Shown piece by piece: positions 8,130 to 62,483 of a stretch of 64,000 nt of DNA. Position numbers and translations under genes: made by a program. The notes beneath the pieces are model-generated. The model made no database searches. It had not been told where the DNA came from and saw only the letters and a program-made list of their open reading frames with translations. How positions within the stretch are numbered: the stretch's first letter is position 1; every line of letters starts with the position of its first letter. The DNA is from Vampirovibrionaceae bacterium NZW_1234. GTDB lineage: Bacteria > Cyanobacteriota > Vampirovibrionia > Vampirovibrionales > JAGQHJ01. The stretch spans positions 180,399-244,398 of the forward strand of contig JBGUGD010000002.1 of the NCBI GenBank assembly GCA_041697335.1, given 5' to 3'.

Positions 8130-9218
8130 TTATGTGGGCAAAGACTCACTGGTTGCTGGCTTCAGCGTTGTGACGTTGTTCTTTGGGAACGGATTGGCAT
8201 GGTGAGGGATAATAAACGACACGGCTTTTGGCACTACGGTAAATTCCACTGGCGTTTTTCCGATGACGTCCCCATCAACTTCAGTACGGACCGCTTGGTC
8301 TGATGTGATGGTTACTTTTTTTGCTTTGAAGTGGGTTACGCCGTCCAGAACTTTCTTCATCAGTTTCTGAGGGGAACTGGTGAGGAGCTGATATCCGATT
8401 TTGAGGTAGTCCATGCGGTTTTGCATTCCGAGGATGGCCACATCCAAAAGGCCATCATTGGGCTTTGCGTCCGGTGTGAAGGAAAAGGGGCCCAGGAGCT
8501 TTCCGGCGTTAGCCACAAGGACGGCAATGCCTTTCTTGCGAATGAGTTTGCCATCGTCGGTTTCAATGTTAAAGGTGACAATCGGACTTGAGAACAATTG
8601 GGTGAGTACGGATTTGACATAGGCCAGCTTGCCGAACCAGCGTTTTTCTGTGCGTGTGGTAGCCTCCATGATGTCGGCATCCAGACCGGCACCGCCCATC
8701 ATAATACAAGGTTCCTTGCCGTTGGCCATTAAAATGTCGGACTCGAAACGCTTACCGGTAAGTAGAGTTTGAAGTCCTTCTTTTAAAGAGGTTGGGATTC
8801 CCAATTCCGTAGCAAAAAGGTTGCCGGTACCTCTCGGCAGGACGCCAACCGCAATGCTGGGATCTTTAAGGGGTAAAAGAGCTTTAATAACCTGACGGAT
8901 ACTGCCGTCACCACCAATGGCTACCACTGTATTCAATTTATCCTTGTGCTGGGCAATCAAGGTCTGCAAGTCTGCAGGGTTCGAAGTCGCTTTAACCACC
9001 ATAAAGCGGTCTTTATCTTTAGGGCGAAAGGTGTTAAGTTCGTCTTGGATTTGCTGATCGAGGGGGCTGTCGCCCACACCCCCGGCTTGGGGGTTTACCA
9101 CCAACATGATCTTGTTTTTGCTGTGGACCTGTGGCGCTGGGCTCTGGCTTGCAAAACGGATGAGAGATGGGTTGGGTCTGATCTTTGTAAGGGCTGTTGT
9201 TATTGGGGAAGTCGCCAT
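8130..9218 (-). CDS. Diacylglycerol kinase/YegS-family lipid kinase with N-terminal RF leader
   Basis: VNPQAG, GGDGS, LPRGTGNLFA, GAGLDA, DGLLD, VDGD. Confidence 0.9.
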   Translation of the reverse strand: MATSPITTALTKIRPNPSLIRFASQSPAPQVHSKNKIMLVVNPQAGGVGDSPLDQQIQDELNTFRPKDKDRFMVVKATSNPADLQTLIAQHKDKLNTVVAIGGDGSIRQVIKALLPLKDPSIAVGVLPRGTGNLFATELGIPTSLKEGLQTLLTGKRFESDILMANGKEPCIMMGGAGLDADIMEATTRTEKRWFGKLAYVKSVLTQLFSSPIVTFNIETDDGKLIRKKGIAVLVANAGKLLGPFSFTPDAKPNDGLLDVAILGMQNRMDYLKIGYQLLTSSPQKLMKKVLDGVTHFKAKKVTITSDQAVRTEVDGDVIGKTPVEFTVVPKAVSFIIPHHANPFPKNNVTTLKPATSESLPT

Positions 9219-9472
9219 GACGCAATTTATTCCTATATAGTTTCCTGTTCTATCAAAGTCCAATGTCCTGATCCATCAATGCGGCTCAAGGGAACTTTTT
9301 GATAGCCAAGGGCGAGGATGTTACGACATGTGAAAACTTTTGTTCGTGTTTTGCCACGTTATCAAAATCTAATGAACGACATAGCCCGCTGGTTGTAGGA
9401 TTAAGCCAGCGATTGGGGATCTTTTTGGGGATAAGGTCAGCGCTTGAAATCGTAAAAATGCAAACAGAACGT

Positions 9473-9877
9473 CTAATAGGAGGTTTGCCCCGGCTCTGCC
9501 ATCTGCTGGTTCCATGCCATTGGATTTTTGGAAATCCCGACGGGGGGGAGTAAAGGGATAACTTGTTCTTTTTGAAGCCCACGGCGCTTCAACTCTTCCT
9601 GATGTCGAATATCCCGAACGGGCAGGTATGCTCGATTAACAACGTCTTCTCGCCAATTATAGGCCCATGTTTTCTGATGAATCGGGTTGAGCTTTAAGGG
9701 AGGTTGAACCGAACGCTGTGTAAACAAGTTCCTTTCCTTCATCGTGGGGTAGCCCGAGGGGATGTGTCGCGGATCGTCGTTCCAAGACCAAGCCCCTGCC
9801 GTTGGCAAAAGTGCGCCAATGACAAGTAACATCATTACGAAAAGAATCTGAACATGCCGCATGACCATCATCCCCAT
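9473..9877 (-). CDS. Putative secreted hypothetical protein
   Basis: Signal-peptide-like hydrophobic N-terminus ending AGA-W. Confidence 0.6.
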   Translation of the reverse strand: MGMMVMRHVQILFVMMLLVIGALLPTAGAWSWNDDPRHIPSGYPTMKERNLFTQRSVQPPLKLNPIHQKTWAYNWREDVVNRAYLPVRDIRHQEELKRRGLQKEQVIPLLPPVGISKNPMAWNQQMAEPGQTSY

Positions 9878-10060
9878 CGTGCGAACGGAGTACTAATCTC
9901 TTGCTCATTTAATCAAAGACCTGACTCAGCCGCTATTCCCCAGATGGTTAGCGGTAAAACTGCATGAGGCAATTTTGCCGGTTGAGGATTTTTATACAGG
10001 GAATACACCTCCCCACTCGCTTTTTTGCTGTACTGTTCTTGAAATCTAGGAGAGAGTTTT

Positions 10061-10588
10061 GTGACGCGTTGTTCATTGTCTGTGGCCAGTGCTGTGCGTT
10101 TTGCAGCCAATCGCCAAGTGTTAATTGTTGACTCCTATGCCTCGAAACTGCAGAGCTTTAAGCAGTGTCTTGAGTACTGGGAGGCGAAAACCCCTCTTCC
10201 AAATGGTGATAAGGTGGACGTCCAAGGGGCGACCACTCAGGAAGAGGCATGGCAGGTCCTTGAAACGAAACCAGTGGAGGTCGTGGTAACTTCCAGTAAA
10301 TTGCCGGAGCTAGGTGACGGGTTAAGGTTTATTCGGGATATTCGGGCGCGGTTGGGGAAACAACCCTTGGTGGTAATGTGGACCTCGGATCCCTATATGA
10401 CGGATGCTCAGGTGAAAAATGCCGGAGGTGACGCATTCTTTACCAGTATGAGTTCTTTTCGTGCTATTTGGACAGCATTATCATCGCATTTGCATAGGGG
10501 GTCCAATCAAACTTCAGATCGGGGCATCGCTGGATCTCAGGTTAAGAGAGAAGAGTCAGGAGATATTACAGGAGGCGATCTGGTTTAG
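10061..10588 (+). CDS. Receiver-domain-like protein lacking the phospho-Asp, with RF leader
   Basis: VLIVD, VVVTSSKLP..GDGLRF, VVMWTS, AGGDAFF; overlaps the gltX 3' end by 33 bp. Confidence 0.65.
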   Translation: MTRCSLSVASAVRFAANRQVLIVDSYASKLQSFKQCLEYWEAKTPLPNGDKVDVQGATTQEEAWQVLETKPVEVVVTSSKLPELGDGLRFIRDIRARLGKQPLVVMWTSDPYMTDAQVKNAGGDAFFTSMSSFRAIWTALSSHLHRGSNQTSDRGIAGSQVKREESGDITGGDLV

Positions 10589-12134: not shown

Positions 12135-13124
12135 TCAATTGTTTATAGTGGCGTCTTTTTGCCCTTTATACTCGTCGTACTCCTGGAGTAGCAGGTTGAC
12201 ATAAACAGAGCCCACTCGTTTAACCAAGGCTTCGTGAAGCTTTTGTTCTGCTCGTTCCTGGGACTGGTCTTCCTTATGGCGTTTAACGCCGATTTCAAAG
12301 CGATCGAGACGCTGGGTGGTCTCCGACTCTAAGTTGTCCAGAAGGGGCTTTAGGTCCTGGATGAGTTCCTGGCGCTTCGGGTGGCGAACAATAGCGTATT
12401 CCAGCTGGCGTCGGTGATCCAAAAATTTTAATTGCTTGAGCAAGGCTGGCAAGGTTGGGTGTGACGGGTGACTAAACCAATCACCTTGACGTATTGCTCG
12501 CTCTACACGGCGTAACCCCGAGCGGGCCACCGTGGTCAGACGATCACTCGGAGGTTCTTTATATACCATAGCTGACAAGACATTCGTATCTTGAACGGCA
12601 TTTTCATCCTGGATTCGGGAGGCGATGTGCTGGACTTTTTCCAGGTGGGTCATCCACTTGCGCCCAAAACGCCGTATACGTTCAAAGTCCAGCTTATCGT
12701 CTTCGGTCAGAAGCGGGGTTTTCAGTGGAAGCAGGTCCCGGTGTTTCCCTGCCCAAAATTGTGGCGTCTGAAGTAAAAAGGCGGCATGTGCGAATTCTTT
12801 ACGACGTTTGAGATCGGTGGGATGCCATGGATCGGCTTCGGCTTCCAGTTCAGCTCGAAGCCTATTAAACGCGTCCTCCGTTTTGCATGCCTGGGTACGG
12901 GAGAAAATATCTGCCCGCTCTTCAGCTGGAAGGAAATGTCCTGGTAAGGGGGCAAGAAACCGATTGATCCCGCGTAGATCACTGTGCCCCAAATTGGGTA
13001 AAAAAGGGGGGGGATCATTATTGGAGGGATCGTTCTCAGACTTGGTGCCAAAGCGAAGAGCGTGAGAAGCGAAAGGGGAAGGCCATTTATCAACCTGGCG
13101 CATGCCTGGCAGAGAAATCCTCAT
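12135..13124 (-). CDS. Helical hypothetical protein with RF leader
   Basis: Long ORF; probable ATG 13124; LRFG near the N-terminus. Confidence 0.7.
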   Translation of the reverse strand: MRISLPGMRQVDKWPSPFASHALRFGTKSENDPSNNDPPPFLPNLGHSDLRGINRFLAPLPGHFLPAEERADIFSRTQACKTEDAFNRLRAELEAEADPWHPTDLKRRKEFAHAAFLLQTPQFWAGKHRDLLPLKTPLLTEDDKLDFERIRRFGRKWMTHLEKVQHIASRIQDENAVQDTNVLSAMVYKEPPSDRLTTVARSGLRRVERAIRQGDWFSHPSHPTLPALLKQLKFLDHRRQLEYAIVRHPKRQELIQDLKPLLDNLESETTQRLDRFEIGVKRHKEDQSQERAEQKLHEALVKRVGSVYVNLLLQEYDEYKGQKDATINN

Positions 13125-13489: not shown

Positions 13490-16400
13490 ATGAAAACGGG
13501 TTTATTTCCGGCTCTTGGTTATCAAACTCCTTCTCGGCTGTTTCGAGGGGGCATGGTGAATGCCTCTCTTTCATCTGACAATTCAGGAGTCATGTTTTCA
13601 GGCAATCGACGTCCTCATCCAGCAACGTACGAATCAGCAGAGAGCCTTAGGGGGCTTTGCGAGCAGTTGGGTCAAACCCACGCTCATAAGCGTTTTAACA
13701 GTCTTATTGAGCGTATTATTGAGGGCTTGAAGGCGAATTCAAAAATTGCCCCGGAGGATCGCATTGCCATTTTAACGGCTCTGGCCCCCCGGGTTCGTCG
13801 CTCAAAACATGTCAGTCAAGTGGGGCAGCTGATTCGTAATCAACCGGAATCGCCTGAAAAAGTGGCATTGATGGCTCAGTTCTTTGCCCCTGCCTCATCG
13901 GTAAAGGTGCCGTCCAAACCGGTTCTCGAAACGAAGGAGCAATTGCTGGCCTATTTCCCTGAGATGGTCAAGCAATTCAAGCGTCGGGTAGATACCACCT
14001 TTTTTGAAGCTCTGGGCAAGCTGCCTGAAATGGAGCAGATGGAGGTTATTGCCACTTTTGCCCGTAAACCCAACCCTCATGAAATTACCCGAGCCCTGAT
14101 TGACGCCATTGATAAATTCCAGGATCCCTTTCATAAGGCCTATGCCTGGCGATCTTTCGAGGGGCTGAGTGATAAATTGCTGGTGGGACTGATTCGGGAA
14201 AAAGCGAAGCGTTTGAAAAATCCTGTAATTTTAGCCGACATTGTTCGGACTTTTCCCCAGGATACGGATGAGTCGCTTTTGGAGACGCTGAAATCTTTTG
14301 TAAGCCAACCTCACAAGGAGCGGCTTCGCGCTCTGTCTGTTGGTGAAACTGTCTTCAAACGCCCCGATGCCAGGTTTACCTTGGCTAAAACATTTGCAAC
14401 CGATAGTTACTTGGCAGTGGGTTTAAAAGCCCTTTCAATAACGGAAGGTATTAAACCCGAAAAACGTTTGGATGCGATGCGAGCTGATTATCTGAAAGCA
14501 TTTGCTCGCAGTCCGCATGCCCAGGTCCGTTTTGTGGCTCTCCTCCGAGCGTCCTCTCTCGCCGGGTCTGATCGCTTGGACACCCTCAAAACTTTTGCCC
14601 AAAATCCTGATTTGATGCTGGACATGAAGCCGGATATTCGGCACAAAACCCAACGTCTCTTTTTTAATCATCCCGAAGTCCTTCCATTTGTTGCGGATGA
14701 GGATTTGAAATCCCAAGTGCTCAGAATGCTAGCTGCGTCCAAAGAGATGGCAACGTTGCATATGGTCTTGGATCAGTCGGCTACGCTGAAGCAGGAAATG
14801 TATCGTATGCCGGTGTTAAAAGAAGTCATCCATAATGCAGCCTTGAGCAAGGCCATTCAAAGTAGTGGTGATTTCCCTCGCCTGTGGACAAAGATTTTGG
14901 CCAGTGTAGAAGGCTTAACTCAAGATAATTTGAAGTCTTTGGGCTTGGTGAGTCTGATGACTCACGTGGTTGCTCAGTCAGATTCCCCAATGGACGATAA
15001 AGGCTCGCCCATAACGTTGCCTCCCAATCGGATCGTTTTACCCAAAGATGCATGGCTTGCTTTTCAGGCTAAAGCCCTGGCCATGGAGACGTCGATTCAG
15101 GATGACGGCTGGAAAGCGAAAGCCTGCCAGGCTTTCGTGAATATGCCTTTAGACACCCTGCAAAAAGCATTGGCTGCTTGCACCGGAATTACGGATCCCC
15201 ATGCTTTGGCCTCTCTGGTCAGTACTTTTGCCCATAATCCGGATGAGCAGATAATGAGCCTGCTGCAGCCCATGATATTAGCCCTCAAGAAATCGTCCCA
15301 GCAGGAGTTTGCAACAGCCCTAATCTCTCTCGCCAAGAATCCTAATGAAGCTGCCCGCTCTTTTGCTGTCGGCCAGATTAAGTCTGTTTCATCAGGGCCT
15401 CAGAAAGCAGCAGTTATTCAAGCCTATCTGGGAGATCCTTCTGATGCTGTTCGTGGGATTACGGAGCAGGCCTACCAGGAGAACAACACCAGTGATACCT
15501 TCCGTCTGAACATGGCCGTGGCGGCAAGTAACAATCCCAACCCTGTTGTACGAAATACCGGTTTCTGCAACCTTTGGGTGGTCAAGGATGAGCACGCGGT
15601 GGCCCAGGCCCTACGCTATTACATCGATGATCCGGATAAAGACATACGTGCTACTGCTGTCCAGATGGTTAGCATCTTTGAACGGCAATCGCTAAAAGCC
15701 AGTATGTTAAAACCCTTTCTCTTTGACAGTGATCCTGAAATTGTAGAACTGGCTCGTGAAAAGGCTATGGAGATGGCTCCCAAGTGGCGGGATGAAGTTT
15801 TATCAGTGCTTGCTCCACCGGAGGAAACGGTGAAGAAGGCAGAGCCAGTGTCTGAGAGGAAACCTGTCAAGCCAACTGCTCCAACAGTAGTACGTCCTGA
15901 TGTTCAGGTGGCTGGGCCCGTCAAGCATGGGTATCGCCTGGATTATATGTTCCAATCGGCACAAACCCAGCTGCAGGAAGCGGCCCAAGGGTTTGCCGCC
16001 AATCAGGTTTACGACCCGGCCATTTTCATGTGTCGACCCACGCAAAGTAAACGCAATTGGCTCTTTCGAAGAGATGATGCCGGGCAGCCTGCGGTTTATG
16101 AACCAATTATGAATTCTGATTTGCGTAATCTCTCAAAGCTTCTGAAGTTACCCCAAGGCTATCCCGGTATTGAGCCCTTGGAAGGCATCTATATCTTTCG
16201 TGGCTACCAGGAGCGCTTTACCCGTGGGGGTATGGGGGCCTACCATATTCTTTTTAATCATGGACCCAATCCCTTTCCGGTGGGAGGCCAGGAGTTGGCT
16301 CCATTAAATGGAGATAAAGACTATTCTCAATTTGTGACCCCTGAGGGCGAGGCTGCCTCTGTGGATCAGATCAGCGAGATGGTTCGTAAGGCTTTAAACG

Positions 16401-16747
16401 AAGGTTCTTTGTTGCGTTTGAAGGTGGGTAAACGCAAACTGGTTTACTTTAAGCTGAAAGGCGATAAGGAAAAGCAAAAGAACCGCTTTTATACTGTGAC
16501 CATGGAATATGCCTACCCTGATGGGCGTCAGATTGGCCGAGATATTCGGACCGGGGTGCCCTACTATAAAATGCATGTGGTCCTGGGTGTTTATCCGGGC
16601 TCCAATAAGGCATTTCTTTATACCGCCTTCCCGACGAACGGAACTGTGAATATTCCGCCGCAATTGCGGCAGGTGGTTGCTGAAGCTCGACATCGCCGTC
16701 AGGCTGTCAAGGCAGCTGCCTCTTTGAAATCGGAATCCCCAGTATAA
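13490..16747 (+). CDS. Large HEAT/ARM-like repeat protein with C-terminal nuclease-toxin-like domain
   Basis: 1085 aa; repeated D/N-P-x-x-x-V/I-R helical units; C-terminal GAYHILFNH and YTAFP. Confidence 0.75.
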   Translation: MKTGLFPALGYQTPSRLFRGGMVNASLSSDNSGVMFSGNRRPHPATYESAESLRGLCEQLGQTHAHKRFNSLIERIIEGLKANSKIAPEDRIAILTALAPRVRRSKHVSQVGQLIRNQPESPEKVALMAQFFAPASSVKVPSKPVLETKEQLLAYFPEMVKQFKRRVDTTFFEALGKLPEMEQMEVIATFARKPNPHEITRALIDAIDKFQDPFHKAYAWRSFEGLSDKLLVGLIREKAKRLKNPVILADIVRTFPQDTDESLLETLKSFVSQPHKERLRALSVGETVFKRPDARFTLAKTFATDSYLAVGLKALSITEGIKPEKRLDAMRADYLKAFARSPHAQVRFVALLRASSLAGSDRLDTLKTFAQNPDLMLDMKPDIRHKTQRLFFNHPEVLPFVADEDLKSQVLRMLAASKEMATLHMVLDQSATLKQEMYRMPVLKEVIHNAALSKAIQSSGDFPRLWTKILASVEGLTQDNLKSLGLVSLMTHVVAQSDSPMDDKGSPITLPPNRIVLPKDAWLAFQAKALAMETSIQDDGWKAKACQAFVNMPLDTLQKALAACTGITDPHALASLVSTFAHNPDEQIMSLLQPMILALKKSSQQEFATALISLAKNPNEAARSFAVGQIKSVSSGPQKAAVIQAYLGDPSDAVRGITEQAYQENNTSDTFRLNMAVAASNNPNPVVRNTGFCNLWVVKDEHAVAQALRYYIDDPDKDIRATAVQMVSIFERQSLKASMLKPFLFDSDPEIVELAREKAMEMAPKWRDEVLSVLAPPEETVKKAEPVSERKPVKPTAPTVVRPDVQVAGPVKHGYRLDYMFQSAQTQLQEAAQGFAANQVYDPAIFMCRPTQSKRNWLFRRDDAGQPAVYEPIMNSDLRNLSKLLKLPQGYPGIEPLEGIYIFRGYQERFTRGGMGAYHILFNHGPNPFPVGGQELAPLNGDKDYSQFVTPEGEAASVDQISEMVRKALNEGSLLRLKVGKRKLVYFKLKGDKEKQKNRFYTVTMEYAYPDGRQIGRDIRTGVPYYKMHVVLGVYPGSNKAFLYTAFPTNGTVNIPPQLRQVVAEARHRRQAVKAAASLKSESPV

Positions 16748-17150: not shown

Positions 17151-17906
17151 TTGATGTCGTTGACTGTTTCACGTGGACATGTGCCTGTTGATGTTCGTTT
17201 TGGAGCCCGTCGCTCAGGATGGGGCTTGGGATCTGCTATGTTGCTGTTAGCTGCTTTATCCGGAGGCTGTGGCAAAAGTGGTGCTGACCGGGTGGATATC
17301 CGTCGTCCATCGGTGTCTCAGGTGTCTTCTTTCGAACAGACAGATCGGATTCCGCCGTTTCGTTTTCATGCCGTCGATCTCCTGGGTGAGCGTGTTCATG
17401 AGCCTGCAGTTACAGAACCTCGGCATCTAAACGAGCTGGGTTTTGAATCTCTTGGGAAACGTCCTGTTTTTGATGCTGTTTACGAAAATCTACGTTTGCC
17501 GTTAGTTGAAACCGGCTTTTCCGGAGTAAGCATGCGTGAAGCTTATGATAGGGAAAGAAAACGGCCAAAGCAGCGGAATCCAAAGCCTGATCTAGGCTCT
17601 CTACGCTCAACAGCCATCGTTTGGGATCCCACCCAAAAGCAATTCTTTCTGAGAAGCCAGCGCTTTGCCTTCGATATGGCCAGTGGTGAAGTCTATCGCC
17701 GGAAGCCAGATGTTTATCAACCTTTGCCTAATGGTCCGGTTGAAATCCCTGGATTTGAGCAATTGTCGGAACAGCATAAAGCCTCTTATACCTATTTATT
17801 GAAAGATGTTGAAGTCGATAACACTAAAGGGGTATTACGTTTAGGGTATCTTGAAATTGACGGTCCCACAGGAAAACGTCAGAAACTTGACCCTGAGTCT
17901 CCTTAA
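17151..17906 (+). CDS. Hypothetical protein with RF leader followed by a lipobox-like segment
   Basis: AGGAG RBS; VRFG then AMLLLAALSGGC. Confidence 0.7.
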   Translation: MMSLTVSRGHVPVDVRFGARRSGWGLGSAMLLLAALSGGCGKSGADRVDIRRPSVSQVSSFEQTDRIPPFRFHAVDLLGERVHEPAVTEPRHLNELGFESLGKRPVFDAVYENLRLPLVETGFSGVSMREAYDRERKRPKQRNPKPDLGSLRSTAIVWDPTQKQFFLRSQRFAFDMASGEVYRRKPDVYQPLPNGPVEIPGFEQLSEQHKASYTYLLKDVEVDNTKGVLRLGYLEIDGPTGKRQKLDPESP

Positions 17907-20878: not shown

Positions 20879-21073
20879 GTGTGTCTTTTCAGGAATATCA
20901 GTTTTTTTGCCTAATGTAAAATTTATGAATTATTGAAATAGCCACCCTCGACTATGTTCCGGGTGGTTTTTCAATTTTATTGATGGGCTATAAAGCAATT
21001 TTGCATAAATGATTGTTTTTATTTTCTATATTTGTTTGTGTCGTATGTCACTTGGGAATTGAGGAGAAGTCGC

Positions 21074-21940
21074 ATGCTAGGCACGGTGTTTACACCCGGC
21101 AGCACGCTGAGCACGATATTAGACCCATTAGCCGCAAATGCGCCTTATTTACAAGGGTCGTCGTTGTTTGAAAAGACATTGCGCTCTCAATATAACGCGA
21201 TGGGCATTCCTGCAGCCTCGATTAACAATGCATTCGGGACAGTTGGGCTTGCAGAATCACCCTTTACTATGCCGCCGGCAACTCTATCTTCCATTCCTTT
21301 AGGAGGCGGTGGTGCTTCCACTGCTTTGGATGCATTAGTAAATATGGCGGCTCAACTTAAACAACAGGCCCCTGCAACAGCCCCGGCTCCTGCAAAGGCG
21401 GAAGAGCCAAAAATAGAGACATTACCACCAACTGAGGTAAAGTCTCCTGCCGGAGCTGCTGCAAAAGCAACAGTAGAAGCTGAGGACATTAAGGCTCCCG
21501 CTGGCAATGCCGATGATGAGAAAAAGCCGGAGTGGTCACAACCTCTGCCTACTGTGACACAGAAGGCTACTGTTGCTTCCCCACCGCCTGTGCAAAAGCG
21601 TGAGCAAAAGAAAAATGACGATGAAGAAAAGTATATGGGCTTCACGAAGAGTGACCTCCAGCGCTACATTATCTTGTCCAATATAGACCGTGACGATCGA
21701 CTGGGCTATATGTTGTCTTCGAAAATGAATACTAAACAGATTGAAACATACTTCAAATTGGCCAAAATGGATAAGGATGAACGGAAGCTCATTATGTTCA
21801 TGGCCGGTCTCTCCAAGGACGACGATAAGGACAAGAAGGTCGACAAGAAAGACAAGGATGACGATAAGGACAAGAAAGTCGACAAGAAAGACAAGGACGA
21901 CGATAAGGATAAGAAAGTCGACAAGAAAGACAAGGACTAA
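21074..21940 (+). CDS. Hypothetical protein with conserved N-terminal domain and Lys/Asp-repeat tail
   Basis: GAGGAG RBS; N-terminus nearly identical to the 22210 protein. Confidence 0.8.
   Translation: MLGTVFTPGSTLSTILDPLAANAPYLQGSSLFEKTLRSQYNAMGIPAASINNAFGTVGLAESPFTMPPATLSSIPLGGGGASTALDALVNMAAQLKQQAPATAPAPAKAEEPKIETLPPTEVKSPAGAAAKATVEAEDIKAPAGNADDEKKPEWSQPLPTVTQKATVASPPPVQKREQKKNDDEEKYMGFTKSDLQRYIILSNIDRDDRLGYMLSSKMNTKQIETYFKLAKMDKDERKLIMFMAGLSKDDDKDKKVDKKDKDDDKDKKVDKKDKDDDKDKKVDKKDKD
21815..21937 (+). repeat. 39-bp coding tandem repeat x3 (KDDDKDKKVDKKD)
   Basis: Units start at 21815, 21854 and 21893 and differ at synonymous positions. Confidence 0.9.
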
Positions 21941-22209
21941 TCCATTATCGTACTGGCCCAATCATCAAATACAGGTTTTACCTTCGATTTAACATTTGAC
22001 TCGGATGACCCAATTCCCGTCCAGTTAGTAGATGCGGCAAATCAAATCTTAAGGATTTGTTAACCCGCGCAATTCGGCAAATTTGGCTGTTTTTATTGTT
22101 TTATACTGGTTTGTTTAAATTTCCCGATGGGTGTCGGGATACCACTGACACCCCGTGAATCCCAAGCTTGAAGCAGGCTTGGGCGGACTTGGGAAAAAGG
22201 AGAAGTGAT

Positions 22210-29452: not shown

Positions 29453-30088
29453 ATGCCGTTCTTAATCCATTCCGGGATGATGTTAAAGCCGTCTTTCAGG
29501 TCTTTCTATGCCATACGCTTTTGTGCAGAACGGCCATCTAATTCACCTGTGAACCAGAATATCGATATAAATAATCCCAGCGATCTGGCAAAAGCTATGG
29601 TTGAGCAACGTGATGCTTTGTTGCGTTACCTGGCGATGCGACGGGTGCCTGAACACATTCGGGAAGACTGTTTTCATGAGGGAGTGTGCCACGTGCTTGA
29701 GGGAAGTTATCGCTATGATGAAAAAGAGACTCTGCAAAAATTCTTCCAGCGAGCGGTTTTTCGTGTCTGGGATCGGACTCGAAAAAGAAATTCTCGCCAC
29801 TACACAGCTCCTTTGGGCGAGATGCAAAAGATATTAAGGTCTTCCGAGGATTCACCCCAGGAACGAGCAATGATGGCGGAGACAGAGAAAGCCATTGTTG
29901 CCAAGATAAACGCCTTGCCCAAACTGGTTGCGCTGGCTTTTGCCTATCACCAGCAAGGGGACTTTACAGTGAAGCAAATTGCCGAACGCCTGGGTATTTC
30001 TGTGCAGACCTATTATCGAAACATTCGGGAGCCTTTAGAAAACCTCCAGGATGAGATCACCCGAAATCTGTTACGAGTGCCATCCTGA
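29453..30088 (+). CDS. Divergent ECF-type sigma-70 factor with RF leader
   Basis: Region-2-like LLRYLAMR..EDCFHE; region-4 HTH INALP..TVKQIAERLGISVQT. Confidence 0.75.
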   Translation: MPFLIHSGMMLKPSFRSFYAIRFCAERPSNSPVNQNIDINNPSDLAKAMVEQRDALLRYLAMRRVPEHIREDCFHEGVCHVLEGSYRYDEKETLQKFFQRAVFRVWDRTRKRNSRHYTAPLGEMQKILRSSEDSPQERAMMAETEKAIVAKINALPKLVALAFAYHQQGDFTVKQIAERLGISVQTYYRNIREPLENLQDEITRNLLRVPS

Positions 30089-30749: not shown

Positions 30750-31058
30750 TTATCTGGAGCGCCGTGTATTTCGGCTCTCGGGGCCATTTTTTGAAGCACT
30801 TCGGGCAAGATAGGCTGCTATGTCTGCTCCGGTATGGATGTTCATTCCACCATCAGGTAAAGGCTCACAGTGGTAATCGGACATCACTTCCGGATCGCCG
30901 GTGATTTCAAGGAGAGTTTGTTTCATTTTTGCTCTAACGGCCGCCTCTCCTTGAACTTGGCGACAGGCTTGTGCCACTTGACGAAACTGGAGGTCGGTAA
31001 TTTTTGTGGTCGCACTGAAACGAAGCGAACCGATAGAAAAGCCACTGCGAATTTGCAT
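30750..31058 (-). CDS. Small hypothetical protein with RF leader
   Basis: AGGAG RBS; MQIRSGFSIGSLRFSA. Confidence 0.7.
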   Translation of the reverse strand: MQIRSGFSIGSLRFSATTKITDLQFRQVAQACRQVQGEAAVRAKMKQTLLEITGDPEVMSDYHCEPLPDGGMNIHTGADIAAYLARSASKNGPESRNTRRSR

Positions 31059-47405: not shown

Positions 47406-50400
47406 ATGTATATCCGGTTTGATGACGCTTATCCGGGATTGAAAATACAAGGTGGAGCGAATGGTCGTCTACCTAGGAAGCCGTTCTTGTCGCCTTCCTC
47501 TACTACTATTAAAAAGCTACAGGCTGATAGTATTTCTAAAACCTCAACGTTTGCGGCTTCCGCGTTATTTTCGGGCTATGTAAAGGCTAAGCCGGGTGAG
47601 CCTGTAGCTCGCTCGTTGAATCTTCAGCCAGACCAGGGCCTTTCTCAAATTCGCACACGTACAGCATTATGGCTGCATCAGATGCGCAAGGCTCATCAAA
47701 ATGACGTTTTATCAGAAGGCTTTCCGTGGGAGCATTACCAAATTTTAGCTAAACAGGGACTATTTGCCCCCAGTTTGCCCACAAAGTTAGGCGGATTAAA
47801 TCTCTCGACTCAAGATTCCGTTCAAGCGATTGCTGGGTTGTTTCAGGCCATGCCAACAGCAGCGGCTTGGGCTGGTGTAAACAGCTATTTAACCTCACTC
47901 GCCATTCAGATGGGTGGTACACCAGCACAACAGCTTGCTTATTTACCGGCCCTTGCTGCGGGTGAGAACAACGCCTTGGGTACCGTGGCGATGGTTGAAA
48001 CAGATCCGCAACAGAAGATTCGCAATATTGATACGACAGCGGTTTATAATCGAGTAACAGGGGAATGGCATCTGTCTGGCCGAAAGCGTGTGATAACCAA
48101 CGGCGATTTAGTCAACACTATGGTGATTTTGGCCAAAACGGCAACCCCGAACGCCAAGGCTCCCCAAATTCCGCATTGGAAAGATATGGCCTTTATTATT
48201 GACTTGAACCAGACACGCAAGCAGAAAGGCTTGAATCTTTCTGTTGTTCAAGGTAAACATTCCACGGATTCATTTTCTGTGGTGGATATGGTTTTCGAAG
48301 ACTTTCGCGTATCGTCTAAGAATATTCTGGGTGGGGAAGATGGGGTGGTTCGTGGACGCGCTCTGGCTATTGATACATTAAATGCCGCTCGTGTCGTGGA
48401 TGCTGCAAAGTCTGTGGGGTTAATGCAAGGGCTTTTCGATAAGGCGTTTCTGTTTTCGGCCACTTCAGAGCAATCGGATCATGTGTTATTAGAAGAGTCT
48501 CGAATTTATCGCCGCCTCGGTCAGATGTCTTGCGAGCTGTTTGCGGCCCAGGCGATGACGAACCATGCTGCTAAAGTTCGTGATGACTATCTCAAAGTGT
48601 TGGGAGTGCCTCATCAATTACCAACCAATGAGTCATTAATGCGAGCACACCGATTAACGGCAGCATCCGCAGCCTTGGAAGCATCTGAAACCCTTCGGGA
48701 GCAGTCTTTGGAATCCGTGCGTGTCATTGACAGTGTTCAGTTGACGGATCCCTACTATCGTTCGTCGTCCTTGCATTTTAATCTTCCTAAATTCCCTTCA
48801 CTCGGGGGATCACCAGATCTGCACCGATGGGAGATCAGTCGCGTGCTATCGGATGAAGCACAGGAATTAAGTGCAAAAAAACGTTCCTCATGGAGATTGG
48901 CAAGTTGGTTGGCGCCTTTTGGCCGAATTCGATTGAACCCTTTTCGCTCCTCGACCCCCAAAACACCACTGGCTGTGGCCGAAAGACTCGAAAAAGCGGC
49001 TGACGAATTGATGAATAAAACTTTACGGCAAGTTTCCGGGAAAACCATCAAAAATCTCCCCCCGTTGCTACGTCCGCAATTTATGCAATCCAAGGTGCCG
49101 CCACAAACCCTCCCTATGCTCAATGATCCTCGTATTTTTTACCCCATGGCCGATATGGTTGTGGCATTACAGAAAATCAAGGCTGCCACGGCCTTGGCCC
49201 GGACTCATGACAATAGTTCGGTGACTGCTCTGAAAGCGAAATTAGTTTCTGTGGATGCCATGGAACGGTTTATCGCGGCTGCTGAAAAAGTCAACGAGGT
49301 TCAGGGTAAATTTTCCCGATTAAACCATCTGAAATCGGAATTGGCTCAGCTGGCTACTGTTGGTGGAACACGAGACGCAAACTATCGAGACATTATTCTT
49401 TCGAATGTTCGCAATTACCGTGAAAATTTAAAAACCTCAACGGGGCGGGCTCTCATCTGGAATGCCTTGTTGCCGGAGTACCAAACCCCGCGTCATTTAC
49501 AAAAATTGGAAGAATGTTTTCGGCATCTGTTCCAGAAGGATGAGCCTTTTTTCCCAGAATCCCACGGACGGCGGACCATTAACATGGTTCACTGGGCTCA
49601 ATGGTTTGCTCAGCCCATGTTGATGAACATCAAGCAGGTGGATTTTCCTGCGGATAATGCAAAACAATTAAAAGAATGGAATCGTACCCATCAGGTGCTT
49701 CTTGCTCCGATGCATCCGACGGGTTTCCCTGATATTTCTGTCGAATGGGGACTCTTACGGGATCTTCGCGAACCGAACGAGGAGTACCCCAAAGTACTCT
49801 TTATGGCCAAGATGGGCCTTTTCACTACCTCATTGGGTGATGTTGGTCCCCTAAAATACATTCCGTTTATCAATAAAATGCGCCCCCTCAACTATATTAT
49901 TCGCCGATTAGGGGCTTTTTCCGTTTCCAGAGGGGTTGATACGGACCGTGCACAGAATCATATGAAGGAAGCGGCTCGTCGTGGAGAGCATATGATTATT
50001 ATTCACCCGCGTGGTGAAGCCGAGCACGTAAACCACCACGTACTTCCCTTCCGTTATGGAACAGCCAATGCTGCCGTGGATGCCATTCGGGAAGGAGCGC
50101 GAAAACCCATTGTAATTGCCCCGTTGGCTTTGGTGTATACCTACTTAAATCCGATTCAAGAAGCCATTAATTCACGGTTGGATATTATTGAGAAAAGACT
50201 CATGGACTCTCGTCCTTCATCATCAAAGGTTATGGATCCGGATCGTCTCCTGATAGAGCAGTCGCATCGGGTTAAACGCGCTTTTCAAAAACATCTGGAG
50301 CAAATGCGGAACCGGTTGGATGAGGCGTTTCCGACCGGTAAAACCACCGTCCTTCCCCAAGGCACCCTATTGGAACAGATTGTCTGGCTAAAACAAGAGA

Positions 50401-50948
50401 TATTGGAGCGGGCTGTGCGGAAATATTATCCAGATGAAGTGGAGTATTACAATCGCAAGAAACCCAATAGCCAGTTGTCGTTAATGCGGATGATCAGCGA
50501 AGATCTGCGCGAGCGCGCCGAGGTGGATACCATTGCTCCAACCAAGGCGAAAAAATATGAAATTATGCGCGATCGGGAGATTTTACGATTTGTTCGTGAC
50601 GTTTCCAGCTTGGTACCTGAGGCTTATGCACATTTACCTGTGTTGAATCAGGATCAGTTTGCTGAACTGGTGATTAAGTTGGAAGAGTGTTTAACCGGGC
50701 ATGGGAAACCGGCATTGCACAAGGAAGGCTTTGAGTATTTTGGTCCACGCAAAGTCATTGCGCGTCTGGCAAAGCCGGTGCATGTGAATGAATGGTTGCA
50801 GAAGTATCCGACAAAACCAATTGATCGAGACAAAGCGGCGATGGACATTACCCGCCTGATGGAGATTAATATGCAGGAAACGGTTGATGATATTTATGCC
50901 GAAATCAACCAGCACAACAGAATTTGGTACCAAAATCCGTTACTTTAA
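47406..50948 (+). CDS. Fusion of an acyl-CoA dehydrogenase-like domain and a PlsC-type acyltransferase
   Basis: GTPAQQLAYLP, AMVE, LSGRKRVITNG, LNAAR (ACAD); HPTGFPD, FMAK, GAFSVSR, HPRGE (acyltransferase). Confidence 0.8.
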   Translation: MYIRFDDAYPGLKIQGGANGRLPRKPFLSPSSTTIKKLQADSISKTSTFAASALFSGYVKAKPGEPVARSLNLQPDQGLSQIRTRTALWLHQMRKAHQNDVLSEGFPWEHYQILAKQGLFAPSLPTKLGGLNLSTQDSVQAIAGLFQAMPTAAAWAGVNSYLTSLAIQMGGTPAQQLAYLPALAAGENNALGTVAMVETDPQQKIRNIDTTAVYNRVTGEWHLSGRKRVITNGDLVNTMVILAKTATPNAKAPQIPHWKDMAFIIDLNQTRKQKGLNLSVVQGKHSTDSFSVVDMVFEDFRVSSKNILGGEDGVVRGRALAIDTLNAARVVDAAKSVGLMQGLFDKAFLFSATSEQSDHVLLEESRIYRRLGQMSCELFAAQAMTNHAAKVRDDYLKVLGVPHQLPTNESLMRAHRLTAASAALEASETLREQSLESVRVIDSVQLTDPYYRSSSLHFNLPKFPSLGGSPDLHRWEISRVLSDEAQELSAKKRSSWRLASWLAPFGRIRLNPFRSSTPKTPLAVAERLEKAADELMNKTLRQVSGKTIKNLPPLLRPQFMQSKVPPQTLPMLNDPRIFYPMADMVVALQKIKAATALARTHDNSSVTALKAKLVSVDAMERFIAAAEKVNEVQGKFSRLNHLKSELAQLATVGGTRDANYRDIILSNVRNYRENLKTSTGRALIWNALLPEYQTPRHLQKLEECFRHLFQKDEPFFPESHGRRTINMVHWAQWFAQPMLMNIKQVDFPADNAKQLKEWNRTHQVLLAPMHPTGFPDISVEWGLLRDLREPNEEYPKVLFMAKMGLFTTSLGDVGPLKYIPFINKMRPLNYIIRRLGAFSVSRGVDTDRAQNHMKEAARRGEHMIIIHPRGEAEHVNHHVLPFRYGTANAAVDAIREGARKPIVIAPLALVYTYLNPIQEAINSRLDIIEKRLMDSRPSSSKVMDPDRLLIEQSHRVKRAFQKHLEQMRNRLDEAFPTGKTTVLPQGTLLEQIVWLKQEILERAVRKYYPDEVEYYNRKKPNSQLSLMRMISEDLRERAEVDTIAPTKAKKYEIMRDREILRFVRDVSSLVPEAYAHLPVLNQDQFAELVIKLEECLTGHGKPALHKEGFEYFGPRKVIARLAKPVHVNEWLQKYPTKPIDRDKAAMDITRLMEINMQETVDDIYAEINQHNRIWYQNPLL

Positions 50949-53401: not shown

Positions 53402-54121
53402 TTATAGGACGTCTGTGGGTTGTTTGCGAAGGGTGTTTGTCTCGGCTTGTTGGAATGGGGCATTTTGCAACACTTCTGGAGAGATGAGCTTTCCATCCAG
53501 TTCTAATGTATCGCCTGGAGCAAGTACTACCTCCTGGAAGCATTCGTTCAGATCTGCCACGGATTTAACCCAATCGACGGGTTTGTTGGGGTTGAGGACC
53601 TGGGCAAACACGGTCCATGTGTCATTCGCTACATCGTAGAAAATGTGAGATTCGTTGCCTTTTTTTCGCCCCCAAAACTTGGAAAAAGGAATCTGATGTG
53701 TTGTGAAAAGCTTCTCCAAATAGAGTTTGTAGTCTCTGCTGGCTGCATACTTGGGATCGCCGCCAATGAGAAGTCCCCGCTGGGTGAATCTTCCAGGACC
53801 GGTGAGCCGAAGTGAATTAAGAAGTTCGACAATCCTTTCTCCAGCTTTTCTAAGGGATTTTGGGTCTGCATTGAGGCTAGGGTCCCCGGAATAACGCCAG
53901 CGGTGCTTTCGGGTTTCCGGGTAGAGGTGAAAACGAAAGGCACCAGCAGGGGTGGTGACCCCTCCGGCGTTACACATTCGGATTCCCGAGGTCTGAACCG
54001 ATTCCGGCGATACCATGTCACAGTCACTCTGGATATCCAACGGGAGCTTATTAAAGGTATCCAATGAAACAAAGCGAATATGAGAGCTGAATCGGATTGG
54101 GGTGACCATCGTGAGCCTCAT
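53402..54121 (-). CDS. Hypothetical protein with RF leader and CheD-like Cys/His motif
   Basis: IRFSS; TSGIRMCNAGGV..FHL..LIGG. Confidence 0.7.
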   Translation of the reverse strand: MRLTMVTPIRFSSHIRFVSLDTFNKLPLDIQSDCDMVSPESVQTSGIRMCNAGGVTTPAGAFRFHLYPETRKHRWRYSGDPSLNADPKSLRKAGERIVELLNSLRLTGPGRFTQRGLLIGGDPKYAASRDYKLYLEKLFTTHQIPFSKFWGRKKGNESHIFYDVANDTWTVFAQVLNPNKPVDWVKSVADLNECFQEVVLAPGDTLELDGKLISPEVLQNAPFQQAETNTLRKQPTDVL

Positions 54122-56047: not shown

Positions 56048-56053
56048 AGCCTT

Positions 56054-60145: not shown

Positions 60146-60159
60146 TCGGCGTTAAGTCG

Positions 60160-60198: not shown

Positions 60199-60345
60199 TA
60201 CGCAGTCGGATCCAGCTCAACCATTGCTGTCTTGCGAAATGTCTTACAAGAATTGCCTGATGGCTGAATGTTCTCCAGCACGGACACCGTCTAGAATGGG
60301 AGTGGCGTGTTTACTTGGAGCAGGTTATTCGAAGGAGTCGGCCTC

Positions 60346-60570
60346 ATGCCATATCAAACCAACCTCGAGTTGCCGAAGAACGTGACCGGGCACCTGCCTC
60401 AGCATGCACAAGATATTTATCGAGAGGCATTCAACCATGCCTGGGAAGAGTATGCCGATCCCGAGAAGCGTTACACAGATGAGTCTCGGGAAGCGGTGGC
60501 CCATAAAGTGGCATGGTCGGCAGTCAAGAAGACGTACAAAAACCAGGAAGGACAATGGTTACCGAAATAA
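60346..60570 (+). CDS. chaB: ChaB-family protein
   Basis: MPY..LP..LPQHAQDIYREAFN.AW..AHKVAWSAVKK. Confidence 0.9.
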   Translation: MPYQTNLELPKNVTGHLPQHAQDIYREAFNHAWEEYADPEKRYTDESREAVAHKVAWSAVKKTYKNQEGQWLPK

Positions 60571-60648
60571 GAAAACACATCGGTCAGCAATATTTTCATC
60601 GGACCCAACGTCTGGAACACAACAATCACCGAAGGAGGAGGATGACGT

Positions 60649-61083
60649 ATGCCTAAAGTCAGAGAGATTATGACTCCAAGTCCGAAGACATGTATGGTCG
60701 ATCATTCGATTGTGTGTGCCTTGGACATTATGAAGAACGAAAATTGTGGTGCCGTGCCCATCGTCGATCAGCAGGGCCAGGTCTGCGGCATTGTCACCGA
60801 TCGGGACATTGCCCTTTCGTTAGCCGATCATGTCTCTCGTCGACCTGAAGAAATCTTGGTGCGCGATTGCTTGGGCAGCGGCATGCAGGTGGTCACGGTA
60901 TCACCCGAGGACGATGTGCAACAGGCCATTCAATTGATGGAGCAGCATCAGATCCGGCGCATTGTCGTGGTGGATGACCAGCAGCGCTGTGTTGGTATTG
61001 TGGCCCAGGCCGATATTGCCTTGAAGGAGCAAAATCCAGCCGAAGCCGGAGAACTGGTTCGAGAAGTATCGAAGTCTAGATAA
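60649..61083 (+). CDS. Stand-alone CBS-domain pair protein
   Basis: VREIMT, GAVPIVD, GIVTDRDI, QIRRIVVVD, GIVAQADI; GGAGGAGG RBS. Confidence 0.92.
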   Translation: MPKVREIMTPSPKTCMVDHSIVCALDIMKNENCGAVPIVDQQGQVCGIVTDRDIALSLADHVSRRPEEILVRDCLGSGMQVVTVSPEDDVQQAIQLMEQHQIRRIVVVDDQQRCVGIVAQADIALKEQNPAEAGELVREVSKSR

Positions 61084-61110
61084 GTCTGGCTGACGCTGAC
61101 AATCTTTAAG

Positions 61111-61152
61111 ACCTGTTTTGATGAGCCAGAATCTAAGTGGATTCTGGCTCAT
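61111..61152. terminator. Hairpin/terminator
   Basis: atgagccagaatc/gattctggctcat. Confidence 0.65.
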
Positions 61153-61250
61153 TTCTTGTAACGAAAATGTTACAAAGCGCATTTTTTTCGTATCACGGGC
61201 GTTACTAGGTCATTACCACCCAAACCTACTAAGATGAGGAGACTTAGAGT

Positions 61251-62483
61251 ATGTCCCAAGTGACGCTTACACCTGCCCAACGCCCAGTGATTCAGGGGAC
61301 TCCTGGTGCAACTCGTATGGCGCAAAGTCGCTCGATTCAAGCTGCTGCTTCAGATAATTTTTCACCCCGCTTTGCTGGAAACAAGCCCAAGGCCGAAGAG
61401 AAAACCGGCTTGGCCAAATTGTGGGACAACATTACCGGCTTTTTTAAGAAACTCGTCAACATGCTGACCTTTGGTTTCTTGTTTGGCGACGCCCAAAAAA
61501 CCGATGAAAAAGACCAGGCTTCGAAGTCAGACGCTGCCAATGATAGCTCTGGCAATGATACGGTTGAAAATGTCGAAACGGAGCAACCTCGTCGTAGGAA
61601 AAGCAAAAAAAACCGGGATAACGTTGAAAAAGAAAAAAAGAAGATTGTTGTTGTCACCGATGGTGATGCGAAAACTAAGGGTGCGGACAAAGACAAAAAA
61701 GACGGTGGCGTTGAGACCACTGGGACTCCAAAGAAAGTTGATGGCCCCGCCGATGTCTCAGGGGGAGCTGCCGACCAGGACTCCCAGGGTGTTACCGTGA
61801 CCGATGGCGCCGACCAGGGCGACAAAGGCAAACAAGTGAAACAAGAGCCAGCGACCCCCGTAGTGGTTACTCCCGCTCAGGCGCCCAAGGTGGCCTATGC
61901 CGATATTCCGCTGAACCAAAAAGTCGCAGCCACCATTCAATCCATTCAATCCGTGGGCAAAAATCTGGCCGAATACAGCAAGATGACTGAAGACTATCGC
62001 TTGAATCTGCCTATCTATAAAACCCTGTATTCCAATTTACCCACCGTCCATGCTGAAACCCCGCTGGGGAACTCCGCTCGCCCGGCCTTGATCGTGGCCC
62101 AAAACATGCTCGAGTTGGCCTCCACAGAGGCCGGTCGTGAGAAATTGAAAGGCGTTTCCGTCAGTGTTGGCGGTGGAAAAACAGAGCGGGCCTTCCCGGA
62201 TTCCGTCATCGCCGATCTCGAAAAAATTGCCTCTCGGGCCACTCGCGCCGATTATGCCAAGGATGAAGACAACAAGGATACCCACGGCTGGGATTTCCAA
62301 GGTGATTACCGCCGCCTCGTGGTTGCCAACAAAGCCGATGCCAAGACCGTTGTTTCCATGCTCCTGGCCAAGCAAAACGACCCCGGCTACATGGAACAGG
62401 TCCTCACAGAACTCCCCGACCTGGTCGACGCCTCCAAATGGGCCACCCGCTTCCAGGACGCCTACCAACCCAAAGCCTCCTAG
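61251..62483 (+). CDS. Hypothetical protein with RF leader, amphipathic helix and Lys/Asp-rich linker
   Basis: GAGGAG RBS; PRFAG then LAKLWDNITGFFKKL. Confidence 0.8.
   Translation: MSQVTLTPAQRPVIQGTPGATRMAQSRSIQAAASDNFSPRFAGNKPKAEEKTGLAKLWDNITGFFKKLVNMLTFGFLFGDAQKTDEKDQASKSDAANDSSGNDTVENVETEQPRRRKSKKNRDNVEKEKKKIVVVTDGDAKTKGADKDKKDGGVETTGTPKKVDGPADVSGGAADQDSQGVTVTDGADQGDKGKQVKQEPATPVVVTPAQAPKVAYADIPLNQKVAATIQSIQSVGKNLAEYSKMTEDYRLNLPIYKTLYSNLPTVHAETPLGNSARPALIVAQNMLELASTEAGREKLKGVSVSVGGGKTERAFPDSVIADLEKIASRATRADYAKDEDNKDTHGWDFQGDYRRLVVANKADAKTVVSMLLAKQNDPGYMEQVLTELPDLVDASKWATRFQDAYQPKAS

Follow-up and report, generated by a model that had tools for sequence, protein, structure and literature searches.

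A short N-terminal leader centred on Arg-Phe marks about one in twenty proteins of a Vampirovibrionaceae bacterium and is a candidate sorting tag

Short motifs located close to the N-terminus of hundreds of unrelated and fast-evolving proteins serve as sorting marks, and often as cleavage marks, in the PEXEL motif of Plasmodium (RxLxE/Q/D) and the RxLR motif of oomycetes, both of which follow a Sec signal peptide, and in the capsid-targeting sequences of phage T4, which act in the phage prohead. Among other N-terminal signals, the Tat pattern reads Ser-Arg-Arg-x-Phe-Leu-Lys, the type IV prepilin leader is short and basic and carries a Gly before the cut that is followed by Phe or Met and a hydrophobic helix with Glu5, the cut sites of MPP show a conserved Arg at -2 or -3 together with an amphipathic helix, and Prp cleaves N-terminal extensions of the ribosomal protein L27. 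Early substrates of the flagellar type III secretion system (T3SS) contain an N-terminal hydrophobic signal and a gate-recognition motif docking on FlhB-C that is typically found 30 residues past the N-terminus, as outlined in Bryant et al. 2022 (PMC8983047). Here we describe a leader on unrelated proteins encoded in a window of 64,000 nucleotides from Vampirovibrionaceae bacterium NZW_1234 (assembly GCA_041697335.1, contig JBGUGD010000002.1, positions 180,399 to 244,398), the term window referring to this entire stretch. A sequence-only reading of this DNA had noticed about 11 proteins that begin with an acid-poor stretch ending in Arg-Phe and a small residue, and had proposed an export or organelle-targeting signal. 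This leader resembles PEXEL, RxLR and the T4 sequences in principle, although here a signal peptide is absent and the genome is bacterial.

The enrichment of the motif was analysed on the whole assembly (3.70 Mb in 41 contigs; genome G000) in a crude set of 3036 non-overlapping longest open reading frames (ORFs) of at least 100 amino acids, whose starts are the longest possible. The pattern [ILVP]RF[GSAC] is found 81, 71, 39 and 20 times in successive 20-residue bins from the N-terminus, corresponding to densities of 1.33, 1.17, 0.64 and 0.33 per 1000 amino acids; in the six bins that follow, the density drops to 0.02-0.14, and past residue 200 it amounts to 0.12. The first 80 residues hold 211 matches in 206 ORFs, and residues 1-40 are about ten times more densely populated than the remainder. 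Five control patterns (FR[GSAC], KF[GSAC], RY[GSAC], RL[GSAC] and RW[GSAC]) are flat along the ORFs, whereas [ILVP]RFG occurs 133 times in the first 80 residues and 34 times elsewhere, which amounts to a 12.9-fold enrichment. The same feature emerges from an unbiased scan of tripeptides, where RFG is the most N-terminally enriched (177 vs 197, p 5e-43) and outranks the Leu runs of signal peptides. Both Arg and Phe are needed for the enrichment in this genome, where Ser, Ala and Gln are tolerated besides Gly after the Phe, and Thr and Met before the Arg, while Cys following Arg-Phe is not enriched (3 vs 8). When sites are scored with an 18-residue position matrix, N-terminal ones are identified in 152 ORFs at a score of 12, compared to 10 sites in other positions, and in 175 ORFs at a score of 10, compared to 28 in other positions. 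These carriers, which make up 5.0-5.8% of the ORF set or about one protein in 20, are present on nearly all contigs and are moderately clustered, with 27 adjacent pairs compared to 10 expected. The genome-wide positional enrichment of RF[GSA] on which the sequence-only reading had staked its proposal is thus strongly present.

The leader is a translated protein tag, since its enrichment is confined to its own reading frame, its codons are varied and the DNA encoding it is unrelated between carriers. In frame 0 of the downstream ORF the motif is found 94, 85, 48 and 26 times in successive 60-nt bins, compared to about 10-30 counts per bin in the other five frames and in the region 5' of the first start codon. 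The Arg, Phe and Gly codons of the motif vary much as they do genome-wide, with Arg distributed over the four CGN codons, and the comparison of leader-coding sequences returned only two weakly similar pairs out of 11476. These properties are not those of an element that acts at the level of nucleotides, which we therefore reject. The best start backed by a Shine-Dalgarno sequence precedes the motif in 119 of the 152 carriers and follows it in 15, with 18 ties, so that true starts downstream of the motif, the second outcome held to speak against a shared leader, are not what is generally found. Counted from these starts, the leader has a median length of 19.5 residues (interquartile range 10-31.5). 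Individual false positives do exist, with the motif residing inside chorismate synthase and MurG-like domains and the RFGxIEV of FliW being a feature of the domain.

The composition of the leaders deviates from the background by an excess of Ser (1.87x), Pro (1.64x, 9.1% of residues), Arg (1.40x) and Thr (1.34x) and a depletion of Glu (0.31x) and Asp (0.58x), and Ser is preferred two residues before the Arg of the motif. Long leaders continue beyond the motif as a polar, Pro-rich linker, with a hydrophobic fraction of 0.13-0.25 in the ten residues past the tag compared to 0.33 in the background, while short leaders lead into the folded domain at once. With hydrophobic segments defined by a Kyte-Doolittle mean of at least 2.0 in a 15-residue window, such a stretch precedes the motif in only two of 152 leaders and is found within 70 residues past the tag in eight of 152 carriers (5%), compared to 19% in the first 70 residues of non-carriers, and segments resembling transmembrane helices anywhere in the protein are likewise less frequent (9% vs 20%). 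As few leaders are hydrophobic and hydrophobic segments are scarce behind them, the tag and Sec-type signals largely exclude each other. The leader shares its N-terminal position with Sec, lipoprotein and Tat signals, but lacks a hydrophobic core on either side of the motif, and we have thus rejected a Sec-type signal peptide, including that of lipoproteins. We have equally rejected a Tat signal, since a single Arg directly precedes the Phe and the following region is polar and Pro-rich, although one carrier holds a separate Tat-like segment downstream of its tag, and a type IV prepilin leader, where the order would be Gly-Phe instead of Arg-Phe-Gly and a hydrophobic helix would follow. Curated N-terminal signal models gave no match in the 30 carriers scanned, and an F-x-x-x-hydrophobic pattern following the tag was not supported. 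On account of composition, hydrophobicity and matrix scores, a shared leader on unrelated proteins that is of neither Sec, Tat nor pilin type, as had been proposed, is supported. Some carriers show a second shared element past the tag, a Lys/Ser/Thr/Pro linker followed by an aromatic amphipathic helix, often with ..P-F-[RK]-W-[LI].., which is found in the window ORF 61251-62483 and about ten others (e.g. C14:32525, C14:34284, C14:179767, C4:4315 and C5:179624); a crude pattern for it matches 6 of 152 carriers and 17 of 2884 other ORFs.

The tag extends to relatives of the organism. Among four further genomes of the same family (G001-G004), it is enriched at N-termini in G003 (13 matches vs 5 elsewhere in 241 ORFs) and G004 (9 vs 6 in 164 ORFs), and in G002, for which few data are available, the ortholog of a tagged citrate synthase (73% identity) has a diverged leader but has kept ..PVRFGGDTPTP. 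Overall, an enrichment of the tag is seen in three genera of this family. Several tagged proteins of the sister genus at G003 L016-L040, which appear ankyrin-repeat-like by eye only (..QFLEAAKTGD.., ..FLVAARHGNLKA..), display a longer upstream consensus, D-S-[VA]-[SA]-I-R-F-G. No enrichment of the Arg-Phe tag was seen in samples from two sister families of the order (G005, G008, G030) or from two other families of the class (G065, G056). In G065, a related form with Ser or Asn in place of the Arg, [ILVP][SN]F[TKSGQ][SGA], is enriched 11.6-fold (6 vs 3), as exemplified by the leader M-Q-I-S-N-N-N-N-V-S-F-S-S, whereas a Ser-Phe-type tag is not enriched in the samples of G005, G008, G030 and G056, and in the genome of the window the form [ILVMAP]SF[KG] reaches only 1.9-fold compared to 7.7-fold for the Arg-Phe form. 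Six identical 148-residue ORFs of insertion-sequence type within 400 kb of G005 (L077-L096) gave spurious N-terminal tripeptide enrichments.

The relationship between both forms is illustrated by the window protein encoded at 53402..54121 on the minus strand, whose tag IRFS (nt 54086-54097) has the strong matrix score of 19.6. No Pfam family covers this protein, for which a full HMMER scan detected 72 relatives across the Melainabacteria, with N-termini of the form ..[IVLP]-R-F-[SA]-S-x-I-x-F-V or ..[IV]-S-F-[TK]-S-x-I-x-F-V. A generalised motif is present in the first 30 residues of 41 of these 72 members, and in 51 aligned sequences the Phe of the tag (F7) is invariant, as are C46, H61 and D200, whereas other lineages, among them ones of low GC content, have Ser, Asn or Thr at the position homologous to its Arg. 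In an AlphaFold2 model of the protein (pLDDT 86.2), the tag is located in a coil directly before the first strand (10-13), and the best match of this model in the PDB is CheD (2f9z_C, E 1.2e-4), followed by NTAN1. The protein is thus predicted to adopt the fold of a CheD/NTAN1-like Cys-His deamidase, and the deamidase-like character that had been assigned to it is supported by this structural match and the invariant Cys-His-Asp. Judged from the conservation in these alignments, the tag is under selection, since the motif was kept in G002 where the leader has diverged and since the Phe is invariant in the 51 aligned members. The Arg-Phe-Gly tag is thus a family-specific variant of a Phe-centred tag common to the class of Melainabacteria, because RF[SA] aligns with SF[TK] around the invariant Phe and because the Ser/Asn-Phe form is enriched in G065.

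The proteins that carry the tag form an accessory, fast-evolving and mostly soluble set. In a Pfam scan of 85 carriers and 47 neighbouring genes, 50 of the former but only 13 of the latter belonged to no family (Fisher p 0.001), and homologs in sampled genomes outside the family are found for 7.9% of carriers compared to 26.1% of other ORFs, which agrees with the accessory repertoire envisaged beforehand. Equivalog models of NCBIfam matched 6 of the 30 carriers scanned, all below the model cut-off. The mature parts of the carriers are poor in Cys (0.48x) and rich in Lys (1.42x). Annotated carriers include enzymes (citrate synthase, malate dehydrogenase, PRPP synthetase, RtcB, a GH77 glucanotransferase and adenosine deaminase), proteases and AAA+ proteins (a 1088-residue M16 peptidase, an S8 protease with HEAT repeats, Lon, two FtsH-like proteins, a ClpB-D2-like and other AAA+ proteins), hydrolases, a lipid kinase, sigma-70 region 4 or ECF-like factors and a receiver protein. 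An untagged paralog exists in the same genome for 35 of the 152 carriers, and the enzyme-like carriers are extra copies, as in case of the tagged citrate synthase, which shares 55% identity with an untagged copy devoid of its extension of about 90 residues. An entire operon at C5:195785-205961 (L057:786-10959), encoding PrkA, SpoVR, DUF444, a PrkA-like and a ClpP-like protein (426 residues), specifies five products with N-terminal extensions of 30-60 residues that contain a looser xRF[GSA] tag. Recurrent chaperone-like neighbours of tagged genes were not found.

A motif of the GCAATTT type is located upstream of 28 of 152 carriers compared to 136 of 2855 other ORFs, which suggests a partial co-regulation of carriers; as the association is only partial, we have rejected a promoter common to all of them. 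One instance, GCAATTT..TTGAGG, resides 92 nt upstream of ORF 10061 in the window, and a variant, GCAATTT..TTGAGG..TTTTAT, precedes some tagged genes, while the promoter-like GGCAATTTT-N13-GTTTTTATT stands in front of genes that have no tag (26 vs 0 of 175 carriers). In the window, two-block motifs are found about 40-100 nt upstream of ORFs 10061, 17151, 21032, 22168 and 54121, and such promoter-like motifs may be targets of alternative sigma factors.

We place about even confidence in the proposal that the leader constitutes a sorting or export tag independent of Sec that is read through its Phe. This proposal is favoured by the positional, protein-level nature of the signal, by its selection and its variants in other lineages, by its behaviour as an alternative to Sec signals, by the accessory character of the carriers and by the lack of a match to curated signal models. 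Three parts would make up the tag: about 5-50 residues that are disordered and poor in acidic side chains, the motif Ser-[Pro/Val/Leu/Ile]-Arg-Phe-[Gly/Ser/Ala]-[Ser/Ala/Gly] and, in most cases, a linker rich in Pro, Thr and Ser ahead of the folded protein. The invariant Phe and the small residues around it would serve a reader as docking site, the unfolded N-terminus would then be passed to a translocon or removed, and about 150-175 mostly soluble proteins would thereby leave the normal cytoplasmic pool. Export by means of the tag, its cleavage and the identity of the machine that would read it are inferred.

Several observations weigh against such an export tag. The first concerns the cargo, which comprises ATP-dependent machines (Lon, two FtsH-like proteins, ClpB-D2-like, ClpP-like and PrkA) along with citrate synthase, malate dehydrogenase, PRPP synthetase, RtcB, sigma factors and a receiver. 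Since ATP-driven machines, enzymes of the tricarboxylic acid (TCA) cycle and transcription factors would be useless outside of an ATP-containing cytoplasm, their export would only be sensible into another cell, or not at all. In addition, a few carriers contain transmembrane, lipobox-like or Tat-like segments after the tag, and in G001, the deepest member of the family, the enrichment is equivocal (RFG 2 vs 13). The second concerns the absence of an evident route in profile searches, which covered the five family genomes G000-G004 or, where stated, 41 genomes of the order: the five family genomes gave no match for VirB4 of type IV secretion systems (T4SS), for a contractile sheath of phage or extracellular injection system (eCIS) type or for VipB of type VI secretion systems (T6SS). 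A second SecA was not found either, as 40 of 41 genomes contain one SecA_DEAD match each and G003 (91% complete) contains none, and we have thus rejected SecA2-dependent export. Seven ORFs with C39 peptidase domains are found in the genome of the window (at C37:142-145 kb, C16:4.1 kb, C5:228.5 kb, C14:49.7 kb, C17:11.3 kb and C4:52.5 kb), one of which (C17:11018-12145) is itself tagged, with a lipobox-like segment after the tag. Such domains are absent in G001-G004, and the leader was rejected as a double-glycine substrate of a C39 exporter because G003 and G004 are tagged without having C39.

The only candidate export route detected is thus one of two flagellar-type type III gates, which show no specific link to the tag. 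Two complete gates are observed in the genome of the window, at C2:99-104 kb, C8:66-70 kb (L159:3227-7132), C29:178.7 kb (L117:12731-13810) and C32:8-21 kb (L061), with the second set split over loci and an FlhA paralog located between FliH and FliI, and genomes of family f7 contain one full FlhA and a paralog of about 500 residues comprising only the C-terminal part. As all 41 genomes of the order that were searched contain two copies each of FlhA and FlhB, and the five analysed for FliP contain two copies of it, there is no pattern of an extra gate specific to the family. Early flagellar substrates resemble the carriers in their unstructured N-terminal region, their short hydrophobic or aromatic docking motif, the lack of a cleavable hydrophobic signal peptide and their being unchaperoned (PMC8983047). 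They differ in that the Phe of the tag is often too close to the start, being less than 30 residues from the ORF start in 72 of 152 carriers and within 15 in 31 (less than 19 from the best Shine-Dalgarno-backed start in 44 of 106), in that the organism's own rod-type proteins in the C32 locus are untagged, with best matrix scores of at most 0.8, and in that sampled genomes where the tag is not enriched contain the gates as well. These features weigh further against the export reading, and on the basis of spacing and untagged rod proteins the tag does not conform to an early flagellar T3SS export signal. Among the flagellar T3SS and T4SS genes whose co-occurrence with the tag was of interest, those of the gates do not track the tag, and VirB4 was not found in the five family genomes.

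The cytoplasm-type cargo implies that the destination of an exported protein would be another cell, or alternatively that the tag acts inside the cell as a mark for processing or stability. In the latter case, a protease or adaptor would recognise x-Arg-Phe followed by a small residue, and would either trim a pro-sequence or mark about 5% of the proteome for conditional degradation, a possibility that we regard as real but rather doubtful. It would account for a cargo of AAA+ proteases, TCA enzymes, sigma factors, a receiver and the whole PrkA-SpoVR-DUF444-PrkA-ClpP operon, and for the untagged paralogs that accompany tagged enzymes, as expected for stage-specific isoforms. The flexible linker past the motif would suit the engagement by a protease, the scarcity of Sec signals is equally expected of cytoplasmic proteins, and the partial co-regulation hinted at by the GCAATTT-type motif points in the same direction. 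However, profile searches with positive controls found neither ClpS (PF02617) in the 41 genomes, which led us to reject a ClpS-dependent pro-N-degron exposing the Phe, nor the cysteine protease Prp (PF04327) in the five family genomes, which speaks against Prp-processed extensions; the C39 domains are restricted to a single member of the family, and no candidate protease was found. An intracellular mark would also leave unexplained why carriers are mostly orphan, poorly conserved and poor in Cys, and why ankyrin-like, HEAT and TPR proteins and the deamidase-fold family are found among them.

Returning to an export tag, a more specific proposal, which we consider improbable as it stands, would assign it the role of an address label in a relocation pathway of Vampirovibrionia that transfers whole modules of cytoplasmic type to a second compartment containing ATP, which would most plausibly be the cytoplasm of a prey or partner cell. 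The modules relocated in this way would be AAA+ proteases, the M16 peptidase, TCA enzymes, sigma factors and proteins bearing lipobox- or Tat-like segments.

Docking within the cell and targeting to an organelle appear less likely. A peptide that fixes cargo to a scaffold within the cell or to a compartment bounded by protein, similar to the encapsulation peptides of microcompartments and encapsulins, would match the architecture of a short conserved motif, flexible linker and varied cargo, and the duplicated nature of the tagged metabolic enzymes and proteases, but it is distinctly improbable in light of the absence of microcompartment (BMC) shell domains in the five family genomes, the restriction of encapsulin to one of them (G004, not the genome of the window) and a repertoire of at least 150 cargo types of up to 1182 residues, which is far beyond known compartments and for which no shell or scaffold candidate was found. 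The sequence-only reading had instead drawn an analogy to mitochondrial presequences. Proteins delivered as effectors into a eukaryotic host, where a mitochondrial- or plastid-type presequence would be cut at a site that depends on Arg, would explain the acid-poor, Ser/Arg/Thr-rich leader, the Arg adjoining an aromatic residue with a small residue next to it, and an organelle-like list of carriers (citrate synthase, malate dehydrogenase, Lon, FtsH, ClpB-like and the 1088-residue M16 peptidase), and the leaders share with MPP presequences and Prp-cleaved L27 extensions an acid-poor character and a small residue after an aromatic one at a possible cut site. This analogy was not supported, and we consider such a presequence highly unlikely, because the Arg is dispensable across lineages, where Ser, Asn or Thr takes its place, and because part of the cargo (ECF-like sigma factors, a receiver domain and proteins with lipobox- and Tat-like segments) is exclusively bacterial; moreover, the motif is far stricter than in organelle presequences, the leaders are rich in Pro, and the injection systems named above were not found in the five family genomes. 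Finally, an artefact arising from fortuitous matches, from ORF starts placed too far upstream or from a DNA element repeated at 5'-ends, which could draw on the choice of the longest possible starts, on the domain-internal matches in chorismate synthase, MurG-like proteins and FliW and on two to four of the 11 window cases that are not separable from chance, has a negligible likelihood in view of the 10- to 13-fold enrichment with flat controls, the frame-0 specificity, the 152 N-terminal matrix sites compared to 10 elsewhere, the leaders without nucleotide similarity and the conservation of the tag in orthologs and in the 72-member deamidase-like family, and it is refuted for the bulk of carriers while holding only for individual weak cases.

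In the window itself, all 11 ORFs and their peptide strings were confirmed at the positions initially assigned, and the matrix grades four of them as strong, three as intermediate and two as weak, with two looser F-S-G forms at background. Besides the deamidase-like protein, the strong cases are the orphans at 12135..13124 (minus strand, 329 residues, LRFG at nt 13047-13058, score 17.9), which matches no Pfam or NCBIfam family and for which an Atlas look-up gave no usable match, at 17151..17906 (plus strand, VRFG at nt 17193-17204, score 17.6), where a lipobox-like hydrophobic segment (..LLLAALSGGC) follows the tag, and at 30750..31058 (minus strand, 102 residues, LRFS at nt 31014-31025, score 16.3), again without Pfam or NCBIfam family. 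Intermediate scores were obtained for the lipid-kinase-like protein at 8130..9218 (minus strand, IRFA at nt 9150-9161, score 11.7), in which DAGK_cat and YegS_C are preceded by a 35-residue extension with the Pfam domain starting at residue 36, for a 717-residue orphan at 32731..34884 (plus strand, PRFS at nt 32791-32802, score 10.9) with no Pfam or NCBIfam family, and for a 410-residue orphan at 61251..62483 (plus strand, PRFA at nt 61365-61376, score 9.8), whose tag is followed by a Lys-rich linker and an aromatic amphipathic helix and for which a word-based search among 5.8 billion proteins found only itself. In all, two window carriers, this orphan included, returned the queries alone in word-based homolog searches.

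The weak cases comprise a receiver-domain protein at 10061..10588 (plus strand, VRFA at nt 10094-10105, score 6.4), whose Response_reg match is below the Pfam cut-off, and an ECF-like sigma factor at 29453..30088 (plus strand; Sigma70_r4_2 in Pfam, sigma70-ECF in NCBIfam). The AIRFCA of the latter (IRFC at nt 29513-29524) is not supported as a tag, since the best N-terminal matrix score of 0.6 lies off the Arg-Phe site. The looser forms are found in a HEAT-repeat protein at 13490..16747 (plus strand, Pfam HEAT_2, VMFSG at nt 13589-13600, score 3.4) and in an Acyl-CoA-dehydrogenase-like protein of 1180 residues at 47406..50948 (plus strand, Acyl-CoA_dh_N/M/1, ALFSG at nt 47562-47573, score -0.2). 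The initial set of about 11 cases therefore stands for the four strong and three intermediate ones and, weakly, for 10061, whereas AIRFCA and both F-S-G forms are not separable from chance; the leader is missing from the housekeeping genes of the window, as had been stated. Two adjacent paralogs at 21032-21940 and 22168-22755, both on the plus strand, share a conserved block at their N-termini (..MLGTVFTPGSTLSTILDPL..APYLQGSSLFEKTLRSQYNAMG) and continue into tails of low complexity that are unrelated to each other, with one tail ending in a tandem KDKDDDKDKKVDKKD repeat. Less than half of the sampled words of the genome are present in DNA runs labelled as hot-spring or microbial-mat metagenomes, and no RNA run was listed, so that we make no claim on habitat or expression.

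A literature search at the level of listings and abstracts found no description of such a tag, and the terms 'N-terminal' and 'signal peptide' are both absent from the main text of Soo et al. 2015 on Vampirovibrio (PMC4451040). Only a few sorting signals are known, most of them described decades ago, and the lineage, a sister to Cyanobacteria, is poorly studied. A short N-terminal motif that is found on 5-6% of the proteome and matches no described signal points to a reader that may act as translocon, protease or docking hub, and its lineage-specific variants over a bacterial class offer a simple sequence rule to list the candidate repertoire in any genome of Melainabacteria. The puzzle posed by its cargo, where ATP-driven proteases, TCA enzymes and sigma factors appear as tagged extra copies, would be solved either by a new form of protein delivery between cells or by a new regulatory layer that spans the proteome. 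If a relocation pathway were to exist, it would parallel, in a bacterium, the transit peptides of organelles, with a non-hydrophobic Ser/Pro/Arg-rich leader and a key Phe, and it could bear on the origin of the Phe-dependent transit peptides of plastids.

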